Source of the DNA: Candidatus Scalindua sp.
GTDB lineage: Bacteria; Planctomycetota; Brocadiia; Brocadiales; Scalinduaceae
Reading direction: 5' to 3'
DNA: 32,000 nt
NCBI GenBank assembly: GCA_031316235.1
Contig: JALDRA010000001.1
Coordinates: 480,001 to 512,000 of the forward strand
Position 1 is the first letter of the stretch. Every line of letters starts with the position of its first letter. The translations under genes were made by a program, and so were the position numbers. The notes beneath the pieces were generated by a model. The model worked only from the letters and a program-made list of their open reading frames with translations, did not search any database and was not told the DNA's origin. Shown here in pieces: positions 751-22,183 of this stretch.

Positions 751-1149
751 GACCTCTCCTTATATATTTGCCCCTCATGTAATCTACGGCTGAATTGACC
801 CAATTCTCATAACTGCGTCATAGATGCAGGGCTTCTTTCAAATATACAATTAGCAATACTCCATTTCTCCTTGCTGCGGCAGCGCCATGGTTTTGACTAT
901 GTCCCGAGTGATCAGCGACACTGCTAACCTCTTCAGGTGAGCACACAGACTATACAGTTACCTCACCAGCGTATACCAGATTCAGTGTAAATTCAAATCT
1001 ATTTTTGAACCTTTTTACGGCACAGCCCCACCGGGAGATTGTCTTTTCTTCCCCTCATCAATGTTTTTCTCGGCTGATCTTCTCTCCCGCTGCATTTCCT
1101 CAAGCGACATAAGAGAAAAACAAGAACAGAATGGCTTTGTACCATAATA

Positions 1150-3323: not shown

Positions 3324-3421
3324 AGTTAAACTCTATTCAGACTTTACTTAAAATAAAGTACTCTTTCATACATCCACGGCTATATTTTCATTCGTTACGA
3401 TTCCATCTGATATATTACTCT

Positions 3422-3820
3422 TTATCTACAACCAGGGGCTTTGCATTTATCTCTTTCACTATGAATATGAGAAGCATACTTACCTAATTGATTACTATAA
3501 GAGTCCCTATGAACAAAATAATCTGTATTTTTTAATACTACTCTATCCTTAAGATTGTACGTATCTCTCAACCTCTTCTCAAGCTCTATATTTCTCTCAT
3601 CATAGAACATCTTTAATGGAATATTTTCCTTACTCCTCCATCTCGACAGCCTTTTAGAAACCAGTGACGGTGAAACATTCAAATCATGGGCAATTTCCCT
3701 TTGCGTAACAAATCCGGGCCACCTGTCATAAATAACCCTGGCGGTCTTATTGTCCAATTCAGGGTCACTTACCGCAATCCTGTACCTGCTCTTATTGTTA
3801 CCATCTCTTTTTTCAGCCAT
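3422..3820 (-). CDS. SorC/DeoR-type HTH regulator, N-terminal domain only (lacks sugar-phosphate-binding domain)
   Basis: ARVIYDRWPGFVTQREIAHDLNVSPSLVSKRLSRWRSKENIPLKMFYDERNIELEKRLRDTYNLKDRVVL matches the SorC-family N-terminal pattern (aArLYY..g.tQ.eIA..L.vSr..VSRlL..Ar..g.V.I.i.d......Le..L...y.Lk...Vv). The ORF stops after 132 aa where about 315 aa is usual. Confidence 0.55.
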   Translation of the reverse strand: MAEKRDGNNKSRYRIAVSDPELDNKTARVIYDRWPGFVTQREIAHDLNVSPSLVSKRLSRWRSKENIPLKMFYDERNIELEKRLRDTYNLKDRVVLKNTDYFVHRDSYSNQLGKYASHIHSERDKCKAPGCR

Positions 3821-3841
3821 AATTTACTTCCTGAACAGGGA

Positions 3842-3923
3842 GTTTTAAACAATGCTCTTCCACCATAGTATGCTGTTTTTGAAATACAGACGGCTGACAA
3901 CGCTCTATGGTGTTGTTTAAAAC
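3842..3923. promoter_or_regulatory. large interrupted inverted repeat in the divergent promoter region (candidate operator)
   Basis: Left arm 3842-3868 is GTTTTAAACAA-tgctcttc-CACCATAG. Right arm 3905-3923 is CTATGGTGTTGTTTAAAAC, whose reverse complement is GTTTTAAACAACACCATAG. That gives 19 matching nt, with an 8-nt insert in the left arm and about 36 bp between the arms. Confidence 0.5.
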
Positions 3924-3940
3924 ACATTGTATAAAATATA

Positions 3941-3969
3941 TTGACACCTGTAATATATTTTCCTAATAT
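3941..3969 (+). promoter_or_regulatory. sigma70-like promoter for the Lrp/AsnC gene
   Basis: TTGACA (3941-3946), a 17-nt spacer, then TAATAT (3964-3969), about 54 nt upstream of ATG 4023. Confidence 0.4.
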
Positions 3970-4022
3970 AAACTCTTTTCGGAATTTAGTTCAATAATAA
4001 AACCAACAGGGCGGCATTACAA

Positions 4023-4616
4023 ATGGGAAGTTTCACAATGAAACTCACAAAGAACGAGATTCATGTACTTAAGCTGCTAGTCCAGAATCCACTAAGTACA
4101 AACCAGGCAATATCAAACAAGCTTGAGATAACCTCCCAGGGTGTCGGCAAGATACGGAAGCAGCTCACAGAGAAAGGGTTTATAAAAAACCAGAAATTAA
4201 GCCTGGATTATGAAAAATTAGGCGTAAACATACATACAATTGCTTTGATAAAGATATTACCCAGTGTTTTTAAAAATTTCAAGAACAACGAATTAGATAA
4301 GGTTTTAAAGCCGAATAATGCTATCAGATGTTATGCAATACCTGAGACAGACATAACCCACATAATAATTTATGCTTTCAGGAATATTAAGGAATATGAC
4401 TCATATTTCAGAAATATTTTAGAGGAATTCGGGGACTATGTGGAGATCAAACACTCCTTTGTCCTTTCATCAGGGAGCATACTGAAATCGTCATCCAAAC
4501 AGATGCTTCTGGAAGTACTCGATAGCTGGGAATTTAATAAAAAAAGAATCTACCGTCGAAACAAAGATGAATACGAAACAGGAGATATGCTGGATAACAG
4601 GAAAAATCGCTTATAA
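4023..4616 (+). CDS. Lrp/AsnC-family transcriptional regulator
   Basis: N-terminal wHTH (LTKNEIHVLKLLVQNPLSTNQAISNKLEITSQGVGKIRKQLTEKGFI) followed by a RAM/AsnC-type ligand domain pattern (LGVNIHTIALIKI...ITHIIIYAFRNIKEYDSYFRNIL). An alternative start is ATG 4038. Confidence 0.8.
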   Translation: MGSFTMKLTKNEIHVLKLLVQNPLSTNQAISNKLEITSQGVGKIRKQLTEKGFIKNQKLSLDYEKLGVNIHTIALIKILPSVFKNFKNNELDKVLKPNNAIRCYAIPETDITHIIIYAFRNIKEYDSYFRNILEEFGDYVEIKHSFVLSSGSILKSSSKQMLLEVLDSWEFNKKRIYRRNKDEYETGDMLDNRKNRL

Positions 4617-4722
4617 TGACAAATTCCGGCATTTTATACACCAGACAATTTGTACCGTACGGTTTTCAGGATTGTAAATAAAACCTTACTGTTAGAAAAA
4701 TCTCTCAATTAAATTGGATATT

Positions 4723-4749
4723 CCGGCAATTCAGATTAGAGATTGCCGG
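4723..4749 (+). promoter_or_regulatory. 8-bp perfect inverted repeat upstream of the CBS gene
   Basis: CCGGCAAT (4723-4730), an 11-nt loop, then ATTGCCGG (4742-4749), 40 nt before ATG 4789. The related word ATTCCGGCA occurs at 4623-4631 and 4720-4728. Confidence 0.3.
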
Positions 4750-4788
4750 CTGTTGAAGAATCATCATAAAAGGAGGCATAGAAATAGT

Positions 4789-5223
4789 ATGATTACGGTA
4801 AACCAAATGCTGAATGACAAAAAGGATGGGGTTTTTACTGTTACACCTGAGGACACTTTACATCATGCATTGAAAGTTATGGCAGATAAAAACATTGGAG
4901 CGGTGGTTGTAGTCAAACAGGGGAAAATCGTTGGAATGTTTTCAGAACGAGATTTTGTGCGAAATGCCGTAGCCGACAGGAAGATATCAATTGATATGAA
5001 GGTAAGTCAATTAATGACGACTGTGGTGTGCTATGTACGCCCGGAACAGGCAATAGATGAGTGCATGGCCTTGATGACAGAGAAACGTACTCGTCATTTG
5101 CCAGTACTGGACGGAGAGAAGCTGATTGGTATTATCAGCATTGGAGATGTATTAAAGCACACCATAGCTGAAAAAGAGTTTACAATTCAGAATCTTGAAA
5201 CTTTTATTTCAGGAGGTCTTTAA
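4789..5223 (+). CDS. CBS-domain pair protein
   Basis: MITVNQMLNDKKDGVFTVTPEDTLHHALKVMADKNIGAVVVV..GKIVGMFSERDFVR plus a second CBS repeat (VSQLMTTVVCYVRPEQAIDECMALMTEKRTRHLPVLDGEKLIGIISIGDVLKH). I prefer ATG 4789, with AAAGGAGG at 4769-4776, over the track start at 4714. Confidence 0.8.
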   Translation: MITVNQMLNDKKDGVFTVTPEDTLHHALKVMADKNIGAVVVVKQGKIVGMFSERDFVRNAVADRKISIDMKVSQLMTTVVCYVRPEQAIDECMALMTEKRTRHLPVLDGEKLIGIISIGDVLKHTIAEKEFTIQNLETFISGGL

Positions 5224-5501
5224 GAGATAAAACATTAAACTATGGGATCGAAATATCTGGCAAAGAGTGCGGATACAAAAACCGATTTGGTTTTAGCATA
5301 TTAACATTTTTTCATCTCTCCTTCATCATGTTTTCATGTTTGGTTGTTATATTTGTCGTTGAGAGACTGATTTGTTGCATATCAGGTGCAGCGGCCTTAT
5401 GAGTAGTTAATTTCTTCAGAAACGAAGAGGCTTATTTTTTTTACTTAATCACAGATGATGTCTTCTTCCGAATAACTGATTCTTAACAAGGAGATAGAAT
5501 T

Positions 5502-7484
5502 ATGTCAGACCTAAAAGCGGATTTGCAAGTTCCAAAGAGTGGCTTTGCGGGTCTAAAACAAAACTTTAAGCAAGACATTATTTCCGGTTTCCTGGTTTTC
5601 CTTATTGCGCTCCCATTATGTCTCGGGATATCCCTTGCCTGCGGTTACCCGGCAATAGCGGGCATATTTACGGCAATTATTGGCGCTATACTTGCCACCG
5701 TTATCAGCAACTCCGAACTGACGATCAAGGGGCCGGCTGCCGGACTTATTGTAATTGCCATCGGAGCGATAACTGAATTTGGATTTACCGGAGGTAAAGA
5801 TCCGGCATCTGATTTACAGGCATACAAGCTCGTCCTCGGAATCGGTGTTGCCGCTGGCTGCATCCAGATTCTTTTCGGTCTGTTTCGTATCGGATCTCTT
5901 AGTGATTTCTTTCCCCTGTCAGTAGTGCACGGGATGCTGGCTGCTATCGGCATAATCATCATACTCAAACAATTTCCTATCGCAATGGGTGGCCGGGCCG
6001 CGGGAGCTCCTCTTGATCTGCTCTTATCAATTCCTGCAAAGATCATACACATGAATCCGAAAATTGCTGCAATAGGTATAGGAAGCCTGGGAATTATGTT
6101 CGGAATACCGCTCATCAAGAACAAATACATCAAGATGGCACCTACTCCCATGTTAGTGCTGATATTTGCCGTACCGTTAGGATTGTATTTTGGCTTATCC
6201 CATGAGCACACATATTTTTTTGAAGGTCGCGAATACAAGGTTGGGGATGAGTTTCTGGTTAACGTTCCGGGAAATATGTTCAAGGCAATGACCTATCCTG
6301 ACTTTTCTGCGTTAAAGACGGTCTCGGGGTGGAAATGGGTGATCATGTTCTCCCTGATCGGCAGCCTGGAGTCCCTGCTCAGTGCAAATGCCATTGATCT
6401 GCTGGACCCCTGGAAACGGAAGACCAATATGAATCGGGACATGCTTGCTGTCGGGATCGGGAATACCGTTTCCGCGTTTATTGGAGGCCTTCCCATGATT
6501 TCTGAGATTGTGCGGAGCAAGGCAAATATTGACAATGGCGCACGAAGCCGTTTCTCAGATCTGTACCATGGGCTTTTTCTGCTTCTTTTTGTGGCATTAG
6601 CACCATTCTTGCTCCATAAGATACCGCTTGCCGCCCTGGCGGCAATGCTCGTATACACCGGTTTTCAATTGACTGCACCACGAAAGTTTACTCTCGTTAA
6701 ACGGATCGGGAGAGAGCAGTTAATCATGTTTGTGGTTACCGTTATAGCTGTACTGGCGACGGACCTGGTTATCGGTATTGCTATCGGGATAGGAACAAAA
6801 TTTATTTTTCATATTATTAATGGCGTTCCGATACGTTCCCTCTTTACGTCCTATCTTGAACTCAGAGAGTTAGACAATGAAACCTGCTTCATTAGAGTTA
6901 AAGAGTCGGCTGTCTTCAGTAACTGGATTCCGATCAAGAAACAGATAGAGCGTTTTGGATTAATTCGAAACAAAAACCTGATATTAGACTTGACAGATAC
7001 CGCTATGGTTGACCACAGTGTGATGGAAAAACTTCACGAAATGAAAGATACGTTCAGTCAGAACAACCTCATGCTGGAAATTGTTGGGTTGGGGGGTCGC
7101 CAGTCTCTGTCCAGCCACCCTCTTTCGACACGCAGAAAGGTAGTTGAGTTAATAAAACGTATTTTGGTCTTTACCGATTCAGTCCTTCAGCCTCTGCTTG
7201 AACAGGAATTAAACTACCATGGGGTAAAAGACTTCACAACTATCGGGTGTGGTGGTGCCGGAGTAGTAACCAGTCAGCGATTGCGTATAGAGATCATAAC
7301 CCCGCCCGACAAAGCCAAACACCTTCTGGATTTTATTCGCGGTGAGATCTTACCAAAATATGCGGAAAAATATTCAGTAAAAGCGTTTACTGAAAATGTG
7401 GAAGTAATCCTTCCCGATGAACCATATGTCACAAAATTAAGTCATAACTCTTTATCAAATCAAACCATAACCATTATGAGATGA
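5502..7484 (+). CDS. SulP-family inorganic anion transporter with C-terminal STAS domain and an additional ~110-aa extension
   Basis: 660 aa. The N-terminus (GLKQNFKQDIISGFLVFLIALPLCLGISLACGYPAIAGIFTAIIGAILATVI) and later motifs (SLESLLSANAIDLL, NTVSAFIGGLPMISEIVRSKANIDNGARSR) are typical of SulP. The STAS-like region is at about aa 455-532 (nt ~6864-7097). AAGGAG lies 7 nt upstream of the ATG. Confidence 0.9.
   Translation: MSDLKADLQVPKSGFAGLKQNFKQDIISGFLVFLIALPLCLGISLACGYPAIAGIFTAIIGAILATVISNSELTIKGPAAGLIVIAIGAITEFGFTGGKDPASDLQAYKLVLGIGVAAGCIQILFGLFRIGSLSDFFPLSVVHGMLAAIGIIIILKQFPIAMGGRAAGAPLDLLLSIPAKIIHMNPKIAAIGIGSLGIMFGIPLIKNKYIKMAPTPMLVLIFAVPLGLYFGLSHEHTYFFEGREYKVGDEFLVNVPGNMFKAMTYPDFSALKTVSGWKWVIMFSLIGSLESLLSANAIDLLDPWKRKTNMNRDMLAVGIGNTVSAFIGGLPMISEIVRSKANIDNGARSRFSDLYHGLFLLLFVALAPFLLHKIPLAALAAMLVYTGFQLTAPRKFTLVKRIGREQLIMFVVTVIAVLATDLVIGIAIGIGTKFIFHIINGVPIRSLFTSYLELRELDNETCFIRVKESAVFSNWIPIKKQIERFGLIRNKNLILDLTDTAMVDHSVMEKLHEMKDTFSQNNLMLEIVGLGGRQSLSSHPLSTRRKVVELIKRILVFTDSVLQPLLEQELNYHGVKDFTTIGCGGAGVVTSQRLRIEIITPPDKAKHLLDFIRGEILPKYAEKYSVKAFTENVEVILPDEPYVTKLSHNSLSNQTITIMR
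7149..7412 (+). other. PII-like (ferredoxin-fold beta-alpha-beta x2) domain at the C-terminus of the SulP protein
   Basis: aa ~550-637 read as KRILVFTD / SVLQPLLEQELNYHGV / KDFTTIGCGGAG / RLRIEIITPPD / KAKHLLDFIRGEILPKY / SVKAFTENVEVI. This has the same segment order as GlnB-type PII proteins (KIEAII.. / ..GITGMTVTEVKGFG / KVKIEIVVPDD.. / GKIFV). The assignment is an inference from pattern, not a search result. Confidence 0.4.
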
Positions 7485-7509
7485 GTAAAAATGGTTAAAG
7501 AGACGTAAA

Positions 7510-8034
7510 ATGGATATATTTTTGAAACTCTTTTCTACACCGAAAACGCTTATTCGACGTCATTCATTAATCGGTGATTCAGGGGTCTTAACTATCGGAA
7601 AAAAGATAGAAAAGAAAGTGAATCGGCTGTTTTCCGGTTCCCTTGCCATCAGAGAAATTGATACAGGTTCAACAAATGCATGTGAACAGGAGATTACCGC
7701 TCTTACCAATACATTTTATGATATTGAGCGGTTTGGTGTCCATTTTGTTGCATCTCCCCGGCACGCCGACATGCTCATGGTTACCGGTCCGGTAACCAGA
7801 AACATGCGTGAAGCCCTGGTAAAAACGTATGAGGCAACCCCGGAACCGAAGATAGTTGTTGCGGTTGGCGATGACGCTATTAATGGCGGAATCTTCAGAG
7901 GGTCGTATGCAGTCCTGGACGGAGTTGACAGGGTTATACCGGTAAATTACTACATACACGGAGACCCGCCTTCACCAATGAAAATCCTTCTCTCCCTTTT
8001 AAATATCCTTGAAATTATAGAGAGTAAATCCTGA
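7510..8034 (+). CDS. NuoB/HycG/HyfI-family small subunit homologue lacking 3 of 4 FeS-cluster cysteines
   Basis: FGVHFVASPRHADMLMVTGPVTRNM...PEPKIVVAVG..INGGIF...VIPVNYYIHGDPPSP aligns by hand with HycG/NuoB (SPRHAD.l.vTG.VT / PKv.ia.GaCa.sGGiF / vPVDvyiPGCPP.P). The ligand positions read T55, C58, D122 and D152. Confidence 0.85.
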   Translation: MDIFLKLFSTPKTLIRRHSLIGDSGVLTIGKKIEKKVNRLFSGSLAIREIDTGSTNACEQEITALTNTFYDIERFGVHFVASPRHADMLMVTGPVTRNMREALVKTYEATPEPKIVVAVGDDAINGGIFRGSYAVLDGVDRVIPVNYYIHGDPPSPMKILLSLLNILEIIESKS

Positions 8035-8057
8035 TATAAGGAAAACGGACAATAGTT

Positions 8058-10106
8058 ATGTTGAATGTCATTACCGCTCAAATCTGTTTTTTCATCATGC
8101 TGTTATCTTTTGCAACCGGAGCAGCAGGCTCACTCCTCTTCATGAAAGATGACACACGTTCAAACTTGTGGGCTAATATCTCCGCAATTATTGGATCGAC
8201 GTTCGGTATCATTTCTTCGCTGATCGTCCTGGTATCAGGGAGCGGCTTTTCCTGTAACCTGAAATCATCGTTCCCTCTTCTTTCCTTTTCAATACAGGTA
8301 GACTGCCTCTGCGCTTTTTTCCTCTTCCTCATCTCAGTAATCTCCCTTTTGTGCTCTCTGTACGCAATAGGGTACACCAGACAGTACTATAAACACTACA
8401 ATATCGGTTCGCTGGGATTTTTCTATAACACTTTTCTTACCGGCATGGTATTTGTGGTTTCTGCGCACAACGGGCTGTTTTTTCTTGTGGTCTGGGAAGT
8501 AATGTCTCTCTCATCTTATTTCCTTGTTATTTTTGAACACAAAGAAGAAAAAAATATTGCGGCGGGATCGTTATATTTTGTTATGACGCATATTGGCACG
8601 GCCTTTATCATACTTGCGTTTCTGCTTCTTTACAAATCAACAGGTTCTCTCGATTTTACCATAATAAAAGACAGCATCGGTGAAATCTCACCTGTTACAA
8701 AAAATGCGGTCTTTATCCTTGCACTTATCGGGTTCGGGACAAAGGCGGGTATCATTCCGCTTCATACGTGGCTCCCAAGTGCTCACCCTGCGGCACCCTC
8801 ACATGTTTCCGCTTTAATGTCAGGGGTCATGATCAAGACAGCCATCTACATGTTAATCAGGATCTTTATGGAATTTATGCCTGATACACCTTTATGGTGG
8901 GGAGTTGTAATTCTCTTTGTCGGTTCTATATCTTCCCTCTTTGGCGTTCTCTATGCACTCTCGGAAAATGATCTTAAAAGATTACTGGCATTCAGCAGCA
9001 TTGAAAACATAGGCATTATTTTGCTCGGGCTTGGTGCTTCGCTGGTTTTCCTGGCCCTGGGTATGAAGCCATATGCAATGATGGCACTGATAGCGTCTTT
9101 ATTTCACACCCTAAACCATGCAACATTCAAGGCTTTACTCTTTTTGGGGGCAGGCTCAGTTATATCGAAAACAGGCACGCGTAATATCGAAGAATATGGC
9201 GGTATCATAAAATTTTTACCGTATACCGCATTTTTCTTTTTAATAGGTTCGATGGCAATTTCAGCACTCCCTCCGTTTAATGGTTTTTTCAGTGAATGGC
9301 TTACGTTTCAATCACTTTTCTCCGGAATTAAAACTACGCATATTTTTATCAAATTGATCTTTATCTCTGCGGCAGGTTCGCTGGCGTTAACGGGTGGCCT
9401 TGCCGCTGCCTGTTTTGTAAGGGCATTTGGTCTTGTATTCCTGGCACGTCCCAGGAGCGAGAGAACAATTTGTGCAAAAGAATCTTCAGTTTCATTACTG
9501 TCTGGTATGGGGGTTCTTGCAGCACTCACATTGCTGTTTGGGTTTTTTTCAGGATATATTTCAGCACTACTTTCAAAGGTTACAAAGAGTATTGTTGTTT
9601 TTCAGGGATCAGAACCAGCGGTTTCATCAAATTTTGAAACTGTCAGATTGCAGGATGGAACAGCCACCGTTTCCATGCCCGGCATCCTCATCTCCCTGGT
9701 CCTTGCTCTTCTGGCCATAACCGTTTTTGTCTATTTCCTGACACGCAGGCAAAAGGTTAAAAAGGGTATCACCTGGGATTGCGGAACACCTTTTACCGGA
9801 AGGATGGAGATAACGGCTACAGGCTTTTCGAGGTCATTGGTAACGATATTCAAGGGTATCCTGAAACCAACCAAACAAACTGATATTGAATACCATGATT
9901 CGAACCTTAAATATTTCACAAAATTTAACATAACGACACTGGGAACAGGGCACGACATTTACAATGAATATTTATATGCTCCTTTAAACAAATTAATCAC
10001 CAGGATTGCGAAATATCTCAGCGTGATTCAAAGCGGAAACATAAACGCTTATGTACTCTATATTATCATTGCCTTAATTACCCTGATACTACTCTTGGTA
10101 GTTTAA
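8058..10106 (+). CDS. HyfB/HycC/NuoL-type antiporter-like membrane subunit
   Basis: 682 aa, close to the size of E. coli HyfB. Contains VVWEVMSLSSYFLV (TM5 Glu, E147), GFGTKAGIIPLHTWLPSAHPAAPSHVSALMSGVMIKTAIY (K229) and FHTLNHATFKALLFLGAGSV. Confidence 0.85.
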   Translation: MLNVITAQICFFIMLLSFATGAAGSLLFMKDDTRSNLWANISAIIGSTFGIISSLIVLVSGSGFSCNLKSSFPLLSFSIQVDCLCAFFLFLISVISLLCSLYAIGYTRQYYKHYNIGSLGFFYNTFLTGMVFVVSAHNGLFFLVVWEVMSLSSYFLVIFEHKEEKNIAAGSLYFVMTHIGTAFIILAFLLLYKSTGSLDFTIIKDSIGEISPVTKNAVFILALIGFGTKAGIIPLHTWLPSAHPAAPSHVSALMSGVMIKTAIYMLIRIFMEFMPDTPLWWGVVILFVGSISSLFGVLYALSENDLKRLLAFSSIENIGIILLGLGASLVFLALGMKPYAMMALIASLFHTLNHATFKALLFLGAGSVISKTGTRNIEEYGGIIKFLPYTAFFFLIGSMAISALPPFNGFFSEWLTFQSLFSGIKTTHIFIKLIFISAAGSLALTGGLAAACFVRAFGLVFLARPRSERTICAKESSVSLLSGMGVLAALTLLFGFFSGYISALLSKVTKSIVVFQGSEPAVSSNFETVRLQDGTATVSMPGILISLVLALLAITVFVYFLTRRQKVKKGITWDCGTPFTGRMEITATGFSRSLVTIFKGILKPTKQTDIEYHDSNLKYFTKFNITTLGTGHDIYNEYLYAPLNKLITRIAKYLSVIQSGNINAYVLYIIIALITLILLLVV

Positions 10107-10112
10107 ACAGAC

Positions 10113-11051
10113 ATGGTTACCATACTTATCTGGACAATTCAGTTATTGCTTGTTCCTGCACTTTCACCGCTTCTTATCGGTGTGGTTAGAAAGATGAAGG
10201 CCAGACTGCAGAATCGAAAAGGGGCAGATATTTTTCAGCCTTACAGAGATCTCTGGAAACTGATGCACAAGGATGAAGTCATCAGCGAAGATGCTTCCTG
10301 GGTTTTTCGTACTGCCCCTTATATTATTTTCGGGATTACCATGATTGTCGGCGCCAGTATCCCACTGTTTACGACACTGATCCCGGATATCCTATTACAT
10401 GATTTTCTTGTAATTGTGTACCTTCTTGCGATAGGAACTTTTTTTCTGGCTCTTGCAGGCCTTGACACAGGGAATGCCTTTGGAGGTTTTGGATCGAGTC
10501 GAGAAATGGTTGTGGCCGCTTTAGCAGAAGGAGGCTTTATCTTCTCTTTTCTCGTACTCGCCTTACTATCAAATTCCACAAATCTGTTTTCCATAGCAGA
10601 ACATGTAGAAACTTTGCGCTTACACTCAAATGTTGAATTTGTGTCAATTGGTTTTGCTTTCTTCGGTTTTTTTATTGTCCTTCTTGCTGAAACCGGGCGT
10701 TACCCATTTGATAATCCCTCCACACACCTGGAACTTACGATGATTCACGAAGCAATGATTCTGGAGTACTCTGGCAAAAGACTTGCCCTTGTTGAATGGG
10801 CCGCTGCCAACAAATTCATGATTTTTCTCGCACTGGGTGTGAACCTGTTTTTCCCCTGGGGTATGGCGAATTCATCAGATTTCACCGATATCATTGTTTC
10901 CCTCGCCTTGTTTCTATCAAAGATGCTGGGTTTTTGCCTTACGATTGCAACGCTTGAATCACGGGTTGCCAAGATCAGATTTTTTAGAATACCAGACATT
11001 TTATTTACCTCTTTTATCCTTTGTGTGATTGCCATTGTAATAATTATTTAG
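10113..11051 (+). CDS. HyfC/HycD/NuoH-type membrane subunit
   Basis: 312 aa. The N-terminus (SPLLIGVVRKMKARLQNRKGADIFQPYRDLWKLMHKDE) and THLELTMIHEAMILEYSGKRLAL match the HycD/NuoH family pattern. Confidence 0.85.
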   Translation: MVTILIWTIQLLLVPALSPLLIGVVRKMKARLQNRKGADIFQPYRDLWKLMHKDEVISEDASWVFRTAPYIIFGITMIVGASIPLFTTLIPDILLHDFLVIVYLLAIGTFFLALAGLDTGNAFGGFGSSREMVVAALAEGGFIFSFLVLALLSNSTNLFSIAEHVETLRLHSNVEFVSIGFAFFGFFIVLLAETGRYPFDNPSTHLELTMIHEAMILEYSGKRLALVEWAAANKFMIFLALGVNLFFPWGMANSSDFTDIIVSLALFLSKMLGFCLTIATLESRVAKIRFFRIPDILFTSFILCVIAIVIII

Positions 11052-11059
11052 GAAAATTC

Positions 11060-11719
11060 ATGATTGAGATCTCATCACAAATTCTGTTTTATCTGGAAGT
11101 ATTAATCTATCTATCAGCAACGTTAATGCATCTGACAAAAAAAAATAGATCCATAATTTTTCTTTACCTGTTCCAATCACTCATTACAACGGTTTTGCTG
11201 GTAATTTTTTCGATCGAAAAGTTCAGTGAATCCCTGGTCTTTGTCATTTTCCTCACATTTTTAGTTAAAGTTATACTTGCCCCGCTTTTCTTTATGAAAC
11301 TGGTCAAACGGCATCAATTACAAATCGCCGTAAGCACGTATCTCAATATACCAATGACTCTTTTAGTTTTAACAATACTGACGGCAGTCACCCATTATCA
11401 CTTTCTTGAACCGCTTACTTCGCTTTCCCCCGGAGAAGAGAAGCTTTTGCTGCTTTCTGTCGCGACTATATTAATATCTCTCTTCCTGATAATAAACCGA
11501 AAGGGGGCTTTGTCACAGATGATCGGAATTTTGTCCCTTGAAAATGCAATAGTATCTTTTGCCTCGTTTGCGAGACTCGAGCACAACCCCGGACTTCAAA
11601 TCGGCATTATTTTTGATCTGCTTGTATGGACCATTATTGCCACAGTATTTGTTTCAATGATTTTCAGGAAATTCGGCACCTTAAATATTACCTCGATAAA
11701 AAAAACCCTGGAAGAATAA
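11060..11719 (+). CDS. HyfE-type small membrane subunit
   Basis: From ATG 11060 (MIEISSQ...) the protein is 219 aa. The C-terminal half (GALSQMIGILSLENAIVSFASFARLEHNPGLQIGIIFDLLVWTIIATVFVSMIFRKFGTLNITSIKKTLEE) parallels E. coli HyfE (..ILRQIFGYCLMENGSHLV...EIGIATDAIFAVIVMVLLARKIWRTHGTLDVNNLTALKG, recalled from memory). Confidence 0.7.
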   Translation: MIEISSQILFYLEVLIYLSATLMHLTKKNRSIIFLYLFQSLITTVLLVIFSIEKFSESLVFVIFLTFLVKVILAPLFFMKLVKRHQLQIAVSTYLNIPMTLLVLTILTAVTHYHFLEPLTSLSPGEEKLLLLSVATILISLFLIINRKGALSQMIGILSLENAIVSFASFARLEHNPGLQIGIIFDLLVWTIIATVFVSMIFRKFGTLNITSIKKTLEE

Positions 11720-11722
11720 AGC

Positions 11723-13171
11723 ATGTTAATATTTTTTCTCATTTTACCGCCCTGTCTGGCAGCGATGTTTTCTGTTTTTGTTCAAAAGAGAACCGGACTT
11801 ATTGAAAGATTTACTTTCATAGCTTCTGTTATTGAACTCTCAGCAGGTTTAAGCATAGTAACGTTTGTTCAACCGGGCAAACCGTATTCGCTCACTTCCT
11901 GTTTTTCTGTTGACGCCCTTGGTGCAATCCTGATACTCATGATAACCGTCATCGGACTTTTTGTCTCGTGGTATTCAATCAGCTATTTAAGATATGAAGT
12001 GACAGGACAGGTAATAGGTTTCAGCAGGGTTCGACAGTACTATATTTTCCTGAACCTGTTTCTGATGGCAATGCTTCTGGCGGTAACCACAACAAGCCCG
12101 ATAATAATGTGGATTGCCATTGAAGGTACAACGCTTTCGACAGCCTTCCTCATAAGCTTTTATAATGATCCATCGGCCGTAGATGCAGCCTGGAAATATT
12201 TGATTGTTAATTCAGTTGGACTACTCCTGGGCTTTATGGGAACACTTCTTTTCTTTTCACCCGTCATAAGCAGCACGAGTCATCAGGGTTTTGTATTCTG
12301 GGATACAATTTTTGCAAACGCACAGAATTCCAACCCCTTTATCGCAAAGATTGCCTTTGTCTTCGTCCTGATAGGGTATGGAACAAAGATGGGGCTGGTA
12401 CCTATGCATACGTGGCTGCCCGATGCCCACAGTAAAGCCCCGGTCCCGATAAGCAGCCTCCTTTCAGGCGTTCTTTTAAGTGTTGCCTTTTTTGCTATTC
12501 TTCACTTCAAAAAAGTTACTGATGCAATGTTAGGCCCTGGCTTTGCGCAGAATTTGTTGATGGTTTTTGGTACGATTTCTGTTTTTATGGCCTCCTTCTT
12601 TATCTATAATCAAAAGAGTTATAAACGCCTGCTCGCTTACTCCAGCATAGAGCACATGGGAATTATTGCCCTGGGTTATGGATTTGGCGGTATCGGTGCA
12701 TTCGCAGCGCTCCTTCACATGATCTTTCATGCTCTAGCAAAATCCTTGCTTTTTCTGTCTGCGGGTAACGTCTATTTAAGATTTAAATCAACTAAAATTC
12801 TTGATGTGAAAGGTGCACTTTCTGCCTTACCCATAACCAGCGTTCTCCTTCTGATTGGGTTTCTGGCTATAACCGGTGTCCCACCGTTCGGTATTTTTTT
12901 TACCGAACTATATATTCTGGCAAGCGGCATCACGAATCATCCTGTTATTACGATTATCGTGTTATTCTCACTTGTTCTTATTTTTGCCGGATTCTTACGT
13001 CATTTTACCTCCATGGTGTTCGGAAAAACCCCGGATACTATTTCAAGAGGAGAATCAAACATGGAGACTATCTTACCTTTAATTGTCATGACTATTCTCT
13101 TTATCATTATCAGCATCTATCTGCCGTCTCACATCAAGAGTTTGATTGATGCTGCCGTTTCAACGTACTAA
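11723..13171 (+). CDS. HyfF/NuoN/NuoM-type antiporter-like membrane subunit
   Basis: 482 aa. Contains IIMWIAIEGTTLSTAFLI (E134), GYGTKMGLVPMHTWLPDAHSKAPVPISSLLSGVLL (K222), YSSIEHMGIIALG and IFHALAKSLLFLSAGNV. Confidence 0.85.
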   Translation: MLIFFLILPPCLAAMFSVFVQKRTGLIERFTFIASVIELSAGLSIVTFVQPGKPYSLTSCFSVDALGAILILMITVIGLFVSWYSISYLRYEVTGQVIGFSRVRQYYIFLNLFLMAMLLAVTTTSPIIMWIAIEGTTLSTAFLISFYNDPSAVDAAWKYLIVNSVGLLLGFMGTLLFFSPVISSTSHQGFVFWDTIFANAQNSNPFIAKIAFVFVLIGYGTKMGLVPMHTWLPDAHSKAPVPISSLLSGVLLSVAFFAILHFKKVTDAMLGPGFAQNLLMVFGTISVFMASFFIYNQKSYKRLLAYSSIEHMGIIALGYGFGGIGAFAALLHMIFHALAKSLLFLSAGNVYLRFKSTKILDVKGALSALPITSVLLLIGFLAITGVPPFGIFFTELYILASGITNHPVITIIVLFSLVLIFAGFLRHFTSMVFGKTPDTISRGESNMETILPLIVMTILFIIISIYLPSHIKSLIDAAVSTY

Positions 13172-13173
13172 TT

Positions 13174-14748
13174 ATGAATACGGATCAGATTGTAGAAAAA
13201 TATGTCCCGGGGAACATGAAAGTAGAGATTTACGGCAATATCATAACCTACAAAATATATAAAAAAAATATTTCCCGGGTCTTTTACACCCTTTATCATA
13301 CGCTGAAACTCCCGCTCAAGACAATAACCGTTACTGACGAGAGGGAGGAAAATGATTCTTTCAAGATTTTTTATCTTTTCGGAGTCCCGGGGGAAAAAGT
13401 GTTTCTTGCCCCCTATATACTGCTGTCAAAAGAATACAAATTCCCTTCTCTCGCAAGTATGAATCACGTAACCACTGAGTATGAAAAGAAGATCAAGTCT
13501 CTTTTCGGTCTAGACCCAACTGGCCATTTAAACCCGAAAAAAATTATCCTTCACGAAAACTGGCCGGACAATGTGTTTCCCTTAAGAAGGGAATTTGACT
13601 GGAAGTCCAGGCCTGATATTGCGCATACTCCGTTTCATTTCGAAAAGGTTGAAGGAGATGGTATTTACGAAATCCCCGTAGGTCCCGTTCACGCGGGCAT
13701 TATTGAACCCGGTCACTTTCGCTTCAGTGTTGCTGGTGAAGAGATACTCTTGCTGGAACCGAGGCTGGGATATACACACAAAGGAAGCGAGAAGCTCTTT
13801 GAAGTCCTCTCTTCCATGGATGAGAAGATTACATTGTCAGAAAGGGTATCCGGCGACAGTTCATTCAGCCATTCACTTGCCTTTTGCCAGGCAATTGAAT
13901 CGTTATGTGAATATGAGGTGACAGAAAGATCAAAGTATCTTCGGGTTATTTATTCGGAACTTGAGAGATTGGCGAATCATTTTGGAGACATTGGAGCCAT
14001 AATGCTGGACACTGGTTTCAGTTTTGGAGGAAGCAATGGCGGCCGTTTACGGGAAATTGTCATGCAGCTGAACGAGCTGTTAACAGGCAGCCGTTTTCTC
14101 CGGGGCGTAAATACAGTAGGCGGTGTAACCAAAGACATATCAGCCCCTCTTATTGACAAGATCTTAAATGAGCTGGAAGATATAAGAAAAGACTTTGAAG
14201 AAGTTATTCATATAGCAGAAAATTGTAATTCTCTGTTGAATCGACTCAAGGGTACCGGAGTGTTAGAAACTCGTATTGCCAGGGACCACGGAGTGGTCGG
14301 TATCGTGGCAAGGTCAATGGGTTTTGCAGCAGATGCCAGAATTGACTACCCATATGCTGCTTATGACAGGTTCTCTTTTGCAGCAGCGACAGAGAATGAA
14401 GGAGATGTATACGCACGATTTTGTGTCCGTGTAAAAGAGAGCTATACCTCCATCCAGATCCTTAAAGAAGCATTAGCGACTCTTCCTGGGGGACCTTGTC
14501 TGGTTTCACCAAAACCCGTCTCCTTGAATAAAGCCAGCTATGGACTTGGAATAACCGAGGGATGGCGTGGCGACATCATTTACTTTGTGGCGACAAATTC
14601 CCGGGGACAGATTATCAGGGTTGATGTGAGAGACCCATCATTTCTAAACTGGCCGGTTCTCAGACATGCCGGGAAAGGCAACGTTGTCCCGGACTTCCCT
14701 CTCATCAACAAAAGTTTCAATCTCTCTTATTCAGGATTCGATTTGTAG
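13174..14748 (+). CDS. HyfG/HycE-type large subunit homologue (NuoC-NuoD fusion) lacking all four NiFe cysteine ligands
   Basis: GPVHAGIIEPGHFRFSVAGEEILLLEPRLGYTHKGSEKL is the group-4 large-subunit signature. The L1 motif reads ERVSGDSSFSH where ERvCGiC..aH is expected. The C-terminus reads DFPLINKSFNLSYSGFDL-stop where D.PLi..S.DPCySCtDR is expected. Confidence 0.85.
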   Translation: MNTDQIVEKYVPGNMKVEIYGNIITYKIYKKNISRVFYTLYHTLKLPLKTITVTDEREENDSFKIFYLFGVPGEKVFLAPYILLSKEYKFPSLASMNHVTTEYEKKIKSLFGLDPTGHLNPKKIILHENWPDNVFPLRREFDWKSRPDIAHTPFHFEKVEGDGIYEIPVGPVHAGIIEPGHFRFSVAGEEILLLEPRLGYTHKGSEKLFEVLSSMDEKITLSERVSGDSSFSHSLAFCQAIESLCEYEVTERSKYLRVIYSELERLANHFGDIGAIMLDTGFSFGGSNGGRLREIVMQLNELLTGSRFLRGVNTVGGVTKDISAPLIDKILNELEDIRKDFEEVIHIAENCNSLLNRLKGTGVLETRIARDHGVVGIVARSMGFAADARIDYPYAAYDRFSFAAATENEGDVYARFCVRVKESYTSIQILKEALATLPGGPCLVSPKPVSLNKASYGLGITEGWRGDIIYFVATNSRGQIIRVDVRDPSFLNWPVLRHAGKGNVVPDFPLINKSFNLSYSGFDL

Positions 14749-15190: not shown

Positions 15191-16936
15191 ATGCAGAACG
15201 GTACAATACCAACCAAAGTAAAAAAGAATGGAATTGAATGGACGGTACGTAAAGGGTATGAGGATCTTCAAGACAGGTTTAATCTTACCTGTCTCCATTC
15301 AGCATTACAGAAAATCCCGCATACGATAATAAAAGATACAAAGGTGAGATCTGTTTTTTTTATACCGGACTCAGACACTAATATGAGAGGTATATATGTC
15401 AAGTGTTTCAAGGAGAGAGATTCCAGAGACTTTAACAAATATCTCGATTGCGTCAAGCATCTCTTTGTCAGGACGAAAGCCGAAACAGAATGGAATGTGG
15501 GAAACAGACTGTTAAGCAAGGAGATTAACACTGCACTCCCCCTGGCAATAGCTGAAAACAGGTCGTGGTTTTTCCGGAAAAACAGCATGCTGATTACAGG
15601 GGCCATACCAGATAGTAAATCCCTGATAGATTTTTGTCAATCGAGCTTTCACGACACCCAATCCGAAGAGGCATCCATCAGAAAAAAGAACCTCATCAAT
15701 ACTCTGGCAGAATTTGTCAGAGATATCCACAGTAAGGGGTTCTTTCACAGCGACTTCCATGCAGGTAATATTTTAATACAATTCCACCATGATCATACCG
15801 GGCAGGACCAGCCGTATTCGTTTTATCTGATAGACCTCCACCACGTAAAGATACTGAAGACATTATCAAAACGGAAGATCCTGTACAACCTCGCACAATT
15901 ATTTAATTCACTCTCTTCATCCTTGACACAATATGACAGGAGACAGTTTTTCCAATCGTATGGAAAAGATAGTTTTGGCAAACAGAAAGAGAGGCAGAAA
16001 CTTGTGGACCAGATAGATACAATATCCTGCAGGTTAAGGTTCACCCATTATAAAAGCCGGCTGAAGAGATGTCTGAAAAGAAGCAGTCTCTTTTCAAAGA
16101 GAAAGTTTGACGGTTTCACGATATTTTTCAGAAAGGGCTATGATACGGAATTTTTTTTTGACCTCTTGGAAAAACATGATACGGCTCTGGCACATAAGCT
16201 GTGCGACACAATCCTGAAACAAGACAGAAAGACCATCTTAACCCGGCACCCTTTTCAGGATAAAGAGATCCAGACCGTTGTAGTAAAGCACTATAAATCT
16301 CCTCCCGGGTTTGGTCTCATAAAAAACAGCTTCCGGAAGTCACCGGGAAAGAAAGCCTGGATTTCCGGAAATGGTTTATTACTATATGGATTTGATGCTC
16401 CTCTGCCGCTCACCTTAATAGAAAAAAGGGTACTCGGAGTTGTCACGGACAGCTACCTGATCATGGAAGCAGTCTCTCACTCGCTTGAGATGGACAGATA
16501 TATCGTAAAGAATTTCCACGACCAGGAGGAATCCAGATTACCCGTAATTGTAAAGATGAAAAGAAGTTTTATAGACCAGTTCGCGCAAATCATTGCGAAA
16601 ATGCATAATAAGAGGGTTTTTCATCACGACCTGAAGACCTGTAATATAATGGTAAAGGCCAATTCAGCGTTCGATTTCACTTTCCTCGATTTTGATAAAG
16701 TGACATTCGGGAAAAACGTGCGTATCCGGGAAAGGATAAGGAATTTAACACAGATCAATCTCTCAACTCCAGGGTGTATCACCCTGAAGGATCGACTGAG
16801 ATTTTTAGGGGAATACCTCAGGCAATGTAACTTACAAGAGGCAAAAAGAACCATACGCAATGAAATTTCCGCTATGAGTAAGAGAGAAAAAATACTCTAT
16901 GTTACCGGTAAAGGAGATGTGACGGAAGATTGGTAG
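15191..16936 (+). CDS. protein with two tandem lipopolysaccharide-kinase (Kdo/WaaP/InaA-type) domains
   Basis: Domain 1 has IYVKCFKER..., GFFHSDFHAGNILI and FYLIDLHHV. Domain 2 has VVVKHYKSP..., VFHHDLKTCNIMV and FTFLDFDKV. Both have the catalytic-loop H.D....N and D-[FL]-x metal-loop patterns of this kinase fold. Confidence 0.7.
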   Translation: MQNGTIPTKVKKNGIEWTVRKGYEDLQDRFNLTCLHSALQKIPHTIIKDTKVRSVFFIPDSDTNMRGIYVKCFKERDSRDFNKYLDCVKHLFVRTKAETEWNVGNRLLSKEINTALPLAIAENRSWFFRKNSMLITGAIPDSKSLIDFCQSSFHDTQSEEASIRKKNLINTLAEFVRDIHSKGFFHSDFHAGNILIQFHHDHTGQDQPYSFYLIDLHHVKILKTLSKRKILYNLAQLFNSLSSSLTQYDRRQFFQSYGKDSFGKQKERQKLVDQIDTISCRLRFTHYKSRLKRCLKRSSLFSKRKFDGFTIFFRKGYDTEFFFDLLEKHDTALAHKLCDTILKQDRKTILTRHPFQDKEIQTVVVKHYKSPPGFGLIKNSFRKSPGKKAWISGNGLLLYGFDAPLPLTLIEKRVLGVVTDSYLIMEAVSHSLEMDRYIVKNFHDQEESRLPVIVKMKRSFIDQFAQIIAKMHNKRVFHHDLKTCNIMVKANSAFDFTFLDFDKVTFGKNVRIRERIRNLTQINLSTPGCITLKDRLRFLGEYLRQCNLQEAKRTIRNEISAMSKREKILYVTGKGDVTEDW

Positions 16937-19779: not shown

Positions 19780-20895
19780 ATGAGCAGAGTTAAATTTGGT
19801 ACTATTTTCGGTGTTGTGGCGTTTGCCACTATCACCCTTACCGTAAACCCATATAGTATGGTTAGAGCATCGGAGGCCCAGAAAAGTCTTAAAGAGAATC
19901 AGATTGGTTACGGGAGAGGCGGAAGGGTTCAGGCCGGATCCCCATCTAAAAATTCAGAGGAACCTATCCAGCCAATACCACTCAGCTTTGACTATGACAG
20001 GGACAAGGTTGAATTAGGCAAGAAGCTGTTTTTTGATCCCAGGCTGTCAAAATCCGGCTGGATCTCCTGTAACTCCTGCCATAATATTGGAACAGGCGGT
20101 GCCGACAATCTGCCAACCTCGATTGGACATAAATGGTTTTTCGGCCCCATAAACTCTCCGACCGTTCTTAACTCGAAGTTTAATCTTGCCCAGTTCTGGG
20201 ACGGCCGTGCAAAGGACCTGCAGGAGCAGGCAGGGGGACCGATAGCAAACCCTCTTGAAATGGCTTCAAACCATGAGCTTGCGATTGAAATATTACAGTC
20301 AATACCACAATATGTGCAATGGTTTGAGGAGGTATACGGAGCGAAAGAGCTGTATGGAAACGGTAAAATAGACATTCTTAACGTGACTGATGCAATTGCA
20401 GCATTTGAGGAGACACTAACCACACCTGGATCCAGCTTTGATCATTGGCTAAACGGTTACGATAACGCTATCTCAGACTCTGAAAAGGAGGGATACCGCT
20501 TATTTAAGGAAAAGGGCTGTATCACCTGCCATAACGGTGTAGGGGTAGGCGGTAACTCTTACCAGAAATTCGGTCTCGCCAGGCCCTATGATAAAGACAC
20601 GCACACACTGGGTAGATATAATGTAACAAAAGACGAGAAAGACAAGTACGTATTCAAGGTTCCGCTGCTCAGAAATATCGAACTCACGGCTCCCTATTTT
20701 CATGACGCGAGCACATGGGATTTAAGCGAGGCGGTAAAGGTCATGTCTGAATATCAACTCGGAAGTTCGTTATCTGATGATGAAACAGGCAAGATTGTTG
20801 CGTTCTTGAAGACCTTGACGGGAGAACAGCCTGAAATCGTTTTTCCCATTCTCCCCCCTTCAACTATCGCAACTCCACAACCAAACAGAAATTAA
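19780..20895 (+). CDS. ccp: di-haem cytochrome c peroxidase (CCP/MauG family), secreted
   Basis: I prefer ATG 19780 (AAGGAG 6 nt upstream), which gives the signal peptide MSRVKFGTIFGVVAFATITLTV. There are two CxxCH haem motifs (CNSCHNIG, CITCHNG), and GKKLFFDPRLS, FWDGRA..L..QA.GP..NP.EM, FKVPLLRNIELTAPYFHD fit the family. Confidence 0.9.
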   Translation: MSRVKFGTIFGVVAFATITLTVNPYSMVRASEAQKSLKENQIGYGRGGRVQAGSPSKNSEEPIQPIPLSFDYDRDKVELGKKLFFDPRLSKSGWISCNSCHNIGTGGADNLPTSIGHKWFFGPINSPTVLNSKFNLAQFWDGRAKDLQEQAGGPIANPLEMASNHELAIEILQSIPQYVQWFEEVYGAKELYGNGKIDILNVTDAIAAFEETLTTPGSSFDHWLNGYDNAISDSEKEGYRLFKEKGCITCHNGVGVGGNSYQKFGLARPYDKDTHTLGRYNVTKDEKDKYVFKVPLLRNIELTAPYFHDASTWDLSEAVKVMSEYQLGSSLSDDETGKIVAFLKTLTGEQPEIVFPILPPSTIATPQPNRN

Positions 20896-20932
20896 CCACA
20901 TGCTGTGCGCATCGTGTGTTGAGATCCAGTGA

Positions 20933-20967
20933 AATGGGTACTGTTGATTACTCAACAAGTACCCATT
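20933..20967 (+). terminator. long hairpin downstream of ccp (no U-tract)
   Basis: AATGGGTACTGTTGA-ttac-TCAACAAGTACCCATT forms a 15-bp stem with one bulged A. It is not followed by a T-run, so terminator function is uncertain. Confidence 0.3.
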
Positions 20968-20990
20968 CAGATGAACAGGTTTAATTACCG

Positions 20991-21019
20991 GGCAATCCTG
21001 ACCGCTGGTCAGGGTTGCC
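20991..21019 (+). terminator. second GC-rich hairpin downstream of ccp (no U-tract)
   Basis: GGCAATCCTGACC-gct-GGTCAGGGTTGCC forms a 13-bp stem with one G-T pair. Confidence 0.3.
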
Positions 21020-21181
21020 GTAAGTAAACCTGACCAAAATTACCTGATTCTCAAATGAAACTGGCAAAGTACCGCATGAACAAATGATGCAGATCTGAAT
21101 AACTTCCCATGGCACTGCAAAAACAGTCTGTTTGTTTATTCCCGGAAAGATCATACTCCTTGAACGGAAAAGGAAATTTTA

Positions 21182-22183
21182 TTGAGAACCATACACAAAT
21201 CAATAGCAGGTAAGAACAAACCGGAGAATCAGGACTCTTTTCTCGTAGATGAAAAGGAGGGCATTTTCATTATTGCTGACGGAATGAGCGGCTGGAATGG
21301 CAGGAATGCCAGTACTACAGCCATACACTCTATTTTCAAATCGTTACCGTTACTGCTGAACAGTCGCATGAAGAGTGATGCAATGAGTGCCGCCCTGAAA
21401 ATATCATTAAAAGAAGCAGACAAAGAGGTAACTTCATTACAGGAAAGATCGGGAACTACTATTGATATCGGCATTATACGGGATGAAGTCTTTCACCTGG
21501 CACATATTGGTGATAGCCGCGTTTATCTCCTGTATGAAAATCTCAATTTTGAGCAGGTCACCAACGATATGGCAAGACCTCAATCTTTATACCACGGGAG
21601 AGAACCGCAGGATGAGATAGAAAAAAAGATCCTTTCGCTCACCAAGAGCTATATGCCGTCCAATTGGATCGGAGATCACGATTCCGGGCACGAAAAACTT
21701 TTTCAATTTGAAAGCATACCCCTCCTGGACGTAAGAAGGATATTGATGACAACTGACGGCCTGACAGACCTCACCCTCGACAATGAGATCAGGGAGGCCT
21801 TACTCACGAGGAACCTGCAGGATGCCTCAGACAAATTAGAGTCATACATCGGGTATCCAAATAAAATAAGTGAGACATTTATCACCCATCTTGAATTCTT
21901 TCTTGAAAACCACCTCAAAGAGCAGAGTATTTTATCCATGCTCGATCCCATTTTTAATCAGTTCAGTAATAACGCCAATATGAGAAAAATGAGGGAGCAT
22001 TATAAAAACAGTCTCATCACCGATGAAAGGCACAGAGAGTTCATTCTTGGTTATTTCAAAAAATTTCCAGAGACAAAAGACTGCTTCCTCGGCTACCTGA
22101 ATAATCTGCTGAGTTTTAGTGATGATACTACTTTTATTATCATTGAACCGAATGGAGAAAATTTCAGACAAAGCCTGAAATGA
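21182..22183 (+). CDS. PP2C-family (PPM) Ser/Thr phosphatase with an uncharacterised ~120-aa C-terminal extension
   Basis: KPENQDSFLVDEKEGIFIIADGMSGWNG, HLAHIGDSRVYLL and ILMTTDGLTDL are PPM motifs. It uses a TTG start at 21182. I do not recognise the C-terminal part (from ~aa 210). Confidence 0.7.
   Translation: MRTIHKSIAGKNKPENQDSFLVDEKEGIFIIADGMSGWNGRNASTTAIHSIFKSLPLLLNSRMKSDAMSAALKISLKEADKEVTSLQERSGTTIDIGIIRDEVFHLAHIGDSRVYLLYENLNFEQVTNDMARPQSLYHGREPQDEIEKKILSLTKSYMPSNWIGDHDSGHEKLFQFESIPLLDVRRILMTTDGLTDLTLDNEIREALLTRNLQDASDKLESYIGYPNKISETFITHLEFFLENHLKEQSILSMLDPIFNQFSNNANMRKMREHYKNSLITDERHREFILGYFKKFPETKDCFLGYLNNLLSFSDDTTFIIIEPNGENFRQSLK

Follow-up and report, generated by a model that had tools for sequence, protein, structure and literature searches.

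A hydrogenase-related module without [NiFe] cysteine ligands beside a SulP transporter gene in Candidatus Scalindua

The complexes of the energy-converting hydrogenase-related (Ehr) type, among them that of Geobacter sulfurreducens (EhrA-D, L, S), were reportedly defined by Coppi in 2005 and by Marreiros et al. in 2013. They are relatives of the group 4 hydrogenases that lack the cysteines binding Ni and Fe, and their function is unknown (PMC6349859, PMC10284858, PMC10432482, bioRxiv 10.1101/765248). A monophyletic set of Ehr large subunits without these cysteines has been described from bacteria of the Candidate Phyla Radiation (CPR), and their interaction with H2 was called unlikely (Jaffe et al. 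2020, PMC7304191). Here we describe an Ehr module of Candidatus Scalindua sp., an anammox planctomycete, found in a stretch of 32,000 nt that we call the window (GenBank assembly GCA_031316235.1, contig JALDRA010000001.1, positions 480,001 to 512,000). Its genes encode, in order, a small subunit, four membrane subunits resembling HyfB, HyfC, HyfE, and HyfF, and a large subunit, all on the forward strand at 7510-14748, and a gene for a SulP-family anion transporter precedes them. Loss of the [NiFe] cysteines is itself an already published hallmark of Ehr, and what is new here in that respect is the host phylum. The more unusual feature is the loss of ligands for the iron–sulfur cluster in the small subunit, which the first-pass annotation of this DNA did not mention. 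In the literature accessible to us, outside which the defining Ehr papers fall, we did not find stated this small-subunit loss, the association with ATP synthase genes reported below, or the anammox SulP operon; neither Ehr in Scalindua nor the structure of a complex of this kind turned up in a literature search. We propose that the module may translocate ions without redox chemistry.

Ligand positions of the large and small subunits

The large subunit joins a NuoC-like part (about residues 30–145) to a NuoD/HycE-like part (about 165–524), the architecture of HycE according to Pfam, and its top phmmer match among PDB chains is HycE of Escherichia coli (7z0s_E, 2.5e-75), followed by Nqo4 of Thermus thermophilus (6.3e-46) and MbhL of Pyrococcus furiosus (2e-40). 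Cysteine has given way to serine at positions 226, 229, and 518 and to glycine at 521, that is, at all four [NiFe] ligand positions. The codons were checked and read tcc for S226 (13849-13851) and agt for S229 (13858-13860), with the stop TAG at 14746-14748. In the phmmer alignments ERVSGDSSFSH is paired with DRVCGICGFAH of HycE and ERMCGICSFSH of MbhL, which places S226 and S229 opposite the cysteines of the N-terminal (L1) motif, and PLINKSFNLSYSG is paired with PLIIGSLDPCYSC of HycE, which places S518 and G521 opposite those of the C-terminal (L2) motif. The nearest cysteine-bearing hydrogenase that we found, at locus L023 of a Thermincola metagenome-assembled genome (MAG), is 44% identical and aligns in gapless local BLASTP alignments, with ERICGACSLSH facing ERVSGDSSFSH and NKSFELCYSCFDR-stop facing NKSFNLSYSGFDL-stop. 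The protein thus lacks both the R-x-C-G-x-C-x3-H (L1) cysteine pair and the D-P-C-x-x-C (L2) pair by which a functional group 4 [NiFe] hydrogenase is recognized. The first-pass annotation had held that all four ligands are gone, and translation, codons, and alignments with HycE, MbhL, and L023 all agree with it. Its more cautious remark that the Tyr of the complex I quinone site is missing as well also held up: the quinone-site residues of NuoD are Tyr87 and His38 in the numbering of T. thermophilus Nqo4, and in the Nqo4 alignment, counted by eye, G227 and I177 stand opposite them.

Other positions of the large subunit have changed as well. Compared with the nearest true hydrogenases, Ehr large subunits carry C226S, A228D, G279D, S487D, E516N, C518S, C521G, and R203K, with D228 standing where those hydrogenases have Ala or Ile. 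R465, opposite the Arg of the HycE P-R-G motif, is invariant in a family alignment of 28 sequences; His173, His202, and His233 are conserved and line up with His residues of HycE in the phmmer alignment. To judge by these residues, the former active site looks like a deliberately remodeled polar pocket. An AlphaFold2 (AF2) monomer model has a predicted TM score (pTM) of 0.84 and finds 7z0s_E as its top Foldseek match (TM 0.82); its per-residue confidence (pLDDT) falls under 50 at residues 146–204 and 501–524, the elements that form the former active site, so the model is unreliable there and allows no statement on what the cavity contains.

The small subunit has been altered in a comparable way. 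Its four [4Fe-4S] ligand positions are T55, C58, D122, and D152, as against C-C-C-C in HycG, MbhJ, and mitochondrial PSST; three of the four proximal-cluster cysteines are thus lost, and C58 is the only cysteine in the protein. We fetched 165 related loci (L numbers below) and scored the ligand positions of the two subunits jointly in loci carrying both. The clade to which the Scalindua module belongs, recognizable by a small-subunit gene that comes first in every locus, shows the pattern [D/T]-C-D-[D/N]: across 38 unique small subunits, the first position is D, T, or S, the second is C in 33, the third D in 35, and the fourth D or N in 37. Other Ehr lineages, sampled from Nitrospira, Rokubacteria, Acidobacteria, Verrucomicrobia, Firmicutes, Thaumarchaeota, and Ca. 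Scalindua rubra, combine an S-G-D / S-Y-S-G large subunit with a C-C-C-C small subunit, except where, in a few cases, a single position differs or the alignment has a gap. Among the Ehr loci sampled, loss of the cluster ligands is therefore confined to the small-subunit-first clade and one outlier, L077. Pfam finds no NuoI/HycF-like ferredoxin subunit in the operon, the CxxCxxCxxxC motif occurs in no open reading frame (ORF) of the window, and no hyp, maturation, or other hydrogenase genes were found within the window. Since the [NiFe] and proximal-cluster ligands are gone and there is no ferredoxin-like subunit, the module can be neither a hydrogenase nor a conventional oxidoreductase; and since the small subunit too is stripped of cluster ligands, the whole module appears to be cofactor-less. 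On sequence grounds, it has no visible electron path.

The first-pass annotation further noted that the large subunit ends exactly where a maturation peptide would begin. The position is right, for the ORF ends three residues past the last ligand position, at the place that corresponds to the mature C-terminus in HycE-type enzymes. A link of this ending to the loss of the ligands did not survive: five cysteine-bearing hydrogenases whose tails we checked (L023, L037, L061, L062, and L082) also stop at C-x-D-R, and all Ehr clades sampled stop at the equivalent residue. Because the nearest true hydrogenases and every Ehr clade end there, the short C-terminus is ancestral to the branch and did not arise through the loss of the metal site. 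Ech- and Coo-type enzymes likewise have no C-terminal extension. The same five hydrogenases are 40–44% identical to the Scalindua protein, carry the motifs C-G-A-C and C-Y-S-C without a C-terminal maturation extension, and have small subunits of 238–262 aa with 12–15 Cys; four carry Firmicutes names, and the label of L061 says Clostridiales only.

Conservation, family placement, and gene neighborhood

The replacement residues are nearly invariant among the closest homologs. Among the 120 best database clusters, which are 59–72% identical to the large subunit, G227, D228, S518, Y519, G521, and D523 occur in all 120, S226 in 119, and Ser or Thr at position 229 in 119; GPVHAGIIEPGHFRF and LGYxHKGxEKL are essentially invariant. 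Apart from one fragment of 477 aa, these homologs are 516–562 aa long, and none of the 120 extends beyond L524. A metagenome scan gave no relative above 62% identity, the relatives at 72% coming from the protein index only. In the comparison with L084, at 72% identity the nearest relative, nonsynonymous divergence (dN) is 0.18 and synonymous divergence (dS) is saturated, which provides only a bound for the Scalindua gene itself; dN/dS was instead obtained from 94 closer pairs elsewhere in the clade, where its median is 0.155 and its range about 0.13–0.25. The ORF is also intact and of family length, and the view of the first-pass annotation, that the protein is maintained and not decaying, is upheld.

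By the features it shares with its relatives, the large subunit is a member of Ehr, a pseudo-hydrogenase whose ancestry lies in the group 4 [NiFe] hydrogenases of Hyf/Hyc type. As in Ehr generally, a hydrogenase-like large subunit without the Ni/Fe cysteines shares one operon with antiporter-like, NuoH-like, and NuoB-like subunits. The signature S-G-D ... S-Y-[SA]-G-x-D is common to every Ehr clade sampled, and identity to the other Ehr clades is 40–46%. Those other loci keep C-C-C-C in the small subunit, with the few exceptions named above, and as a rule its gene stands at the end and in many cases has a Cys-rich extension fused to it, whereas the present clade has [DT]-C-D-[DN], the small-subunit gene first, and no ferredoxin-like domain; its strict six-gene order is kept in 79 loci. 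Proteins named as Patescibacteria, Wildermuthbacteria, Uhrbacteria, Daviesbacteria, and Saccharibacteria are 59–63% identical to the Scalindua large subunit and come with an identical gene order, and in a rough neighbor-joining tree without support values the Scalindua protein is nested among CPR proteins. To judge from the names of the homologs and this tree, the clade may correspond to the CPR type described in PMC7304191. Unlike the CPR type, the module has an anammox planctomycete as its host and is operonic with a SulP gene instead of following an ATP synthase operon. An identical protein in a Candidatus Scalindua sp. MAG carries the NCBI name ‘NADH-quinone oxidoreductase subunit C’.

The membrane arm retains its ion-handling residues. 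In the clade, where each subunit was counted over 46 to 53 unique sequences, the HyfB-like subunit has E147, K229, K260, H350, H354, K358, and E413 invariant (46/46); the NuoH-like subunit has R130, E131, E193, D200, E207, and E213 invariant (49/49) and E218 in 48/49; the HyfE-like subunit has E174 invariant (52/52); and the HyfF-like subunit has E134, K222, and K340 invariant (53/53), the position in transmembrane helix (TM) 12 being either K or E. With E. coli hydrogenase-4 and formate hydrogenlyase (HyfB, C, E, F, G, I; HycE, HycG; PDB 7Z0S) the module shares a fused NuoC–NuoD and Hyf-type membrane subunits, and HycE is the best sequence and fold match; the module differs from them in having no [NiFe] site, proximal cluster, HycF/HyfH, HyfA, maturation peptide, or formate dehydrogenase. 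With the Mrp antiporters it shares two MrpA/MrpD-type subunits with an invariant TM5 Glu, a TM7 Lys, and a TM12 Glu or Lys, the lack of redox cofactors, and the gradient-driven working that we propose. Unlike Mrp, its operon has no MrpB, C, E, F, or G by Pfam and includes NuoH-, NuoB-, and NuoCD-like subunits; at most it works like Mrp, and it is no member of that family. DabAB and the cyanobacterial NDH-1MS/CupA likewise use complex I/Mrp-type membrane subunits in a non-respiratory task, and the anammox subgroup of the clade shares with them its carbon-gene neighbors; in distinction from both, the module includes no Zn-binding, carbonic-anhydrase-like subunit such as DabA or CupA, none is encoded in the window, and the CPR majority shows no carbon-gene association.

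The commonest neighbors within the clade are F-type ATP synthase genes; of 41 non-redundant groups, 13 have them no more than 5 kb away. Considering only loci of at least 12 kb, ATP synthase genes are present in 12/47 from the clade versus 0/58 from other Ehr and hydrogenase clades, and on several CPR contigs only a few nucleotides separate atpC from the start of the module behind it (L002, L003, 1-4355).

At the Scalindua locus the neighbor is the SulP gene (Table 1). The intergenic gaps from SulP through the module are 25, 23, 6, −31, 3, and 2 nt, and with this spacing SulP is probably co-transcribed with the module. Its best PDB match is chain 6ki1_A, which we take to be BicA, the cyanobacterial bicarbonate transporter. 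At the C-terminus of the transporter (6750-7481), after the STAS region, there is a weak P-II-like match (E = 0.07); most SulP homologs at 55–65% identity have a clear C-terminal P-II domain (PF00543). The CBS-domain protein encoded upstream of SulP is a possible regulator, its membership in the system being uncertain.

The arrangement recurs in related genomes to varying extents. L170 (10001-19888) has SulP (71% identity) followed by the same six genes (large subunit 72%) with the same dead motifs, flanked on the opposite strand by a complete Mrp operon upstream (1-8818, −) and DabA downstream (20243-21938, −). Its small subunit is 74% identical and its membrane subunits 64–71%, so conservation of the peripheral arm is no lower than that of the membrane arm. 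Between its small-subunit and HyfB-like genes L170 also contains a stretch of some 260 nt in which short inverted repeats, rich in GC, occur, resembling repetitive extragenic palindromes (REP) or miniature inverted-repeat transposable elements (MITE) (12831-13090), absent from the window. Downstream of the module, a beta-carbonic anhydrase is encoded in L084 (7139-7771, −) and L171 (9856-10065, −), which fall in the same 90% cluster; in L171 a transposase-like ORF without a Pfam match (497-1567) lies upstream of the module, at the place expected for SulP. Ca. Scalindua rubra L167 (10001-19313) keeps the synteny IF-2B, CitMHS ... SulP and then has a different Ehr subtype, 42% identical, with the small-subunit gene last and C-C-C-C retained; a syntenic SulP followed by a different Ehr suggests that the module was replaced in place at the Scalindua SulP locus. 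The Brocadiaceae genome L169 has the SulP orthologue without Ehr, preceded by a CBS protein and next to two carbonic-anhydrase-like genes, and one further SulP homolog stands without Ehr neighbors. SulP directly adjoins Ehr also in L014 and L070 (one Endomicrobiales and one Terriglobia locus). When the carbonic anhydrase of L084 and the DabA of L170 were used as phmmer queries against all ORFs of 166 loci, a set that left out L170 and L171, only L084's own gene was matched, which limits the carbon-uptake link to the anammox subgroup. The SulP–Ehr link thus recurs across Ehr subtypes, and its carbon-uptake flavor is confined to that subgroup.

Table 1. Coordinates of the module, its motifs, and its upstream neighbors in the window
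Feature	Position	Strand	Basis and remarks
CBS-domain protein, upstream of SulP	4714-5223	+	Pfam CBS
SulP-family anion transporter, 660 aa	5502-7484	+	Pfam Sulfate_transp; 25 nt upstream of small subunit
Ehr small subunit, NuoB/HycG-like, 174 aa	7510-8034	+	Pfam Oxidored_q6; alignments to HycG, MbhJ, PSST
HyfB/NuoL-like antiporter-like subunit, 682 aa	8058-10106	+	NCBIfam hydrogenase-4 subunit B, 2.6e-205
HyfC/NuoH-like membrane subunit, 312 aa	10113-11051	+	Pfam NADHdh
HyfE-like membrane subunit, NuoK-like C-terminus	11021-11719	+	NCBIfam hydrogenase-4 membrane subunit, 1.2e-14
HyfF/NuoM/N-like antiporter-like subunit, 482 aa	11723-13171	+	NCBIfam hydrogenase-4 subunit F, 2.1e-133
Ehr large subunit, 524 aa	13174-14748	+	Pfam Complex1_30kDa + Complex1_49kDa; PDB match HycE
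Former L1 motif, E223-R-V-S226-G-D228-S229-S-F-S-H233; S-G-D-S where CxxC was	13840-13872	+	Translation, alignments
Former L2 motif and C-terminus, D507-F-P-L-I-N-K-S-F-N-L-S518-Y-S-G521-F-D-L-stop	14692-14748	+	Translation, alignments

The HyfE-like ORF is listed with a TTG start at 11021, which overlaps the preceding gene by 31 nt; more likely translation begins at the ATG at 11060 (MIEISSQ...), and the overlap then disappears. Downstream of the large subunit, after 442 nt, comes a gene for a 581-aa protein with two Kdo/WaaP-like or protein-kinase-like regions (15191-16936), probably unrelated to the module, and then genes for a GT2 glycosyltransferase and a member of the arginase family. 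At 24446-25190 (−) a PIN-domain toxin is paired with an antitoxin of Phd/YefM type. No Rfam family was found in the window, and scans for promoters and terminators were uninformative.

Proposed function and competing explanations

From the absence of metal ligands and of an electron-input subunit, the intact ion-handling residues, the purifying selection, and the gradient-linked neighbors, we infer that the module may be a redox-independent, gradient-driven ion translocator, which in Scalindua would support anion uptake by SulP, the anion probably being bicarbonate; we put the probability of this at roughly 0.5. Like Mrp, the module would run on an ion gradient, without redox chemistry; H+ and probably a second cation would be exchanged or shuttled. 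The remodeled polar pocket of the peripheral arm could then serve as a structural plug or as a ligand-sensing gate on the NuoH-like channel, and in Scalindua the module would supply or balance the ion gradient for uptake of an anion, probably bicarbonate, by the BicA-like SulP. In a more far-reaching form of this proposal, SulP and the module would be one unit in which the gradient powers or gates uptake of bicarbonate or another anion by an autotrophic anammox bacterium, and beside ATP synthase the module would be the sole gradient converter of CPR bacteria, which to our knowledge have no respiratory chains; we regard this extension as unlikely.

Several points count against the main proposal. 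Taxonomy confounds the association with ATP synthase, CPR genomes being small, and the sole ATP synthase c subunit that could be recovered (L124) has no Q/E-S-T Na+ signature and looks H+-type, giving no support for Na+. All NCBIfam matches of SulP lie far under cut-off, so that its substrate is not established, and SulP stands next to Ehr in a minority of loci only. Conservation of the peripheral arm exceeds what a mere plug would need and is therefore a hint of a real ligand or catalytic site; C58, D122, and D152 of the small subunit might conceivably form a non-standard metal site. Finally, reviews call the function of Ehr unknown, with no experiment on any Ehr complex (PMC10284858, PMC10432482, bioRxiv 10.1101/765248).

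The best surviving competitor of ion translocation makes the peripheral arm a site for inorganic carbon: the pocket that was once the gas-accessible [NiFe] site, and whose lining now consists of Ser, Asp, Arg, and a free C-terminus, would bind CO2/HCO3-, with vectorial hydration or release driven by the membrane arm, which would make it a third complex-I-type carbon pump besides NDH-1MS/CupA and DabAB. The anammox flanks fit this picture, with the BicA-like SulP in the window and L170, DabA in L170, and beta-carbonic anhydrase in L084 and L171, as do the two carbonic-anhydrase-like genes adjoining the Brocadiaceae SulP orthologue, the P-II-like domain on many SulP homologs, and a pocket whose residues are invariant and include three Asp gained relative to true hydrogenases. 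However, the conserved pocket residues include no clade-specific Cys/His combination like the Zn site of carbonic anhydrase, His173, His202, and His233 having counterparts in HycE; DabA and carbonic anhydrase are encoded on the opposite strand; and most members of the clade are found in CPR bacteria, beside ATP synthase and without carbon-uptake genes. We judge a carbon pump distinctly improbable.

Less probable again, and by our estimate very much so, is a redox enzyme that works with a docking partner (formate dehydrogenase, ferredoxin, or a flavoprotein), as proposed for other Ehr. Such a role has precedent in the combination of formate dehydrogenase with Ehr proposed for Margulisbacteria and Saganbacteria (PMC6349859) and in the greater abundance of Geobacter Ehr subunits during growth on formate (PMC7894505). 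These Ehr types keep the four small-subunit cysteines, however, and the present clade does not; having neither these cysteines nor a NuoI/HycF-like subunit, it offers no relay that would reach the membrane interface, and no redox genes recur among its neighbors. Two further readings deserve next to no credence. The loss of every catalytic ligand might signal a pseudogene or a relic under relaxed constraint, which is ruled out by an intact ORF of family length, replacement residues invariant across the 120 homologs, dN/dS of about 0.13–0.25, and a six-gene order kept in 79 loci; and the ordinary complex I NuoC/NuoD implied by the public name and by sub-threshold NCBIfam NuoD matches is ruled out by model scores far below cut-offs (220 vs 360 bits), the far better match to HycE than to Nqo4, G227 and I177 in place of the quinone residues, an operon without NuoA, E, F, G, I, or J, and missing N2 cluster ligands.

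For annotation, the public name, NADH-quinone oxidoreductase subunit C, is the label under which the large subunit now stands, and screens for hydrogenases may count the protein as a hydrogenase. Ehr complexes are widespread, and the present clade is the one in which a redox explanation can be set aside from the subunit sequences, although its peripheral arm and all its ion-translocation residues are still strongly constrained. The Scalindua locus thereby separates two entangled questions about machines of the complex I type, what the membrane arm does and what the quinone-site or active-site module contributes other than electrons. If the more far-reaching form of the proposal is true, the whole core of complex I, peripheral arm included, would be in redox-independent use, and the 20-year-old question of what Ehr complexes do would receive a testable answer.

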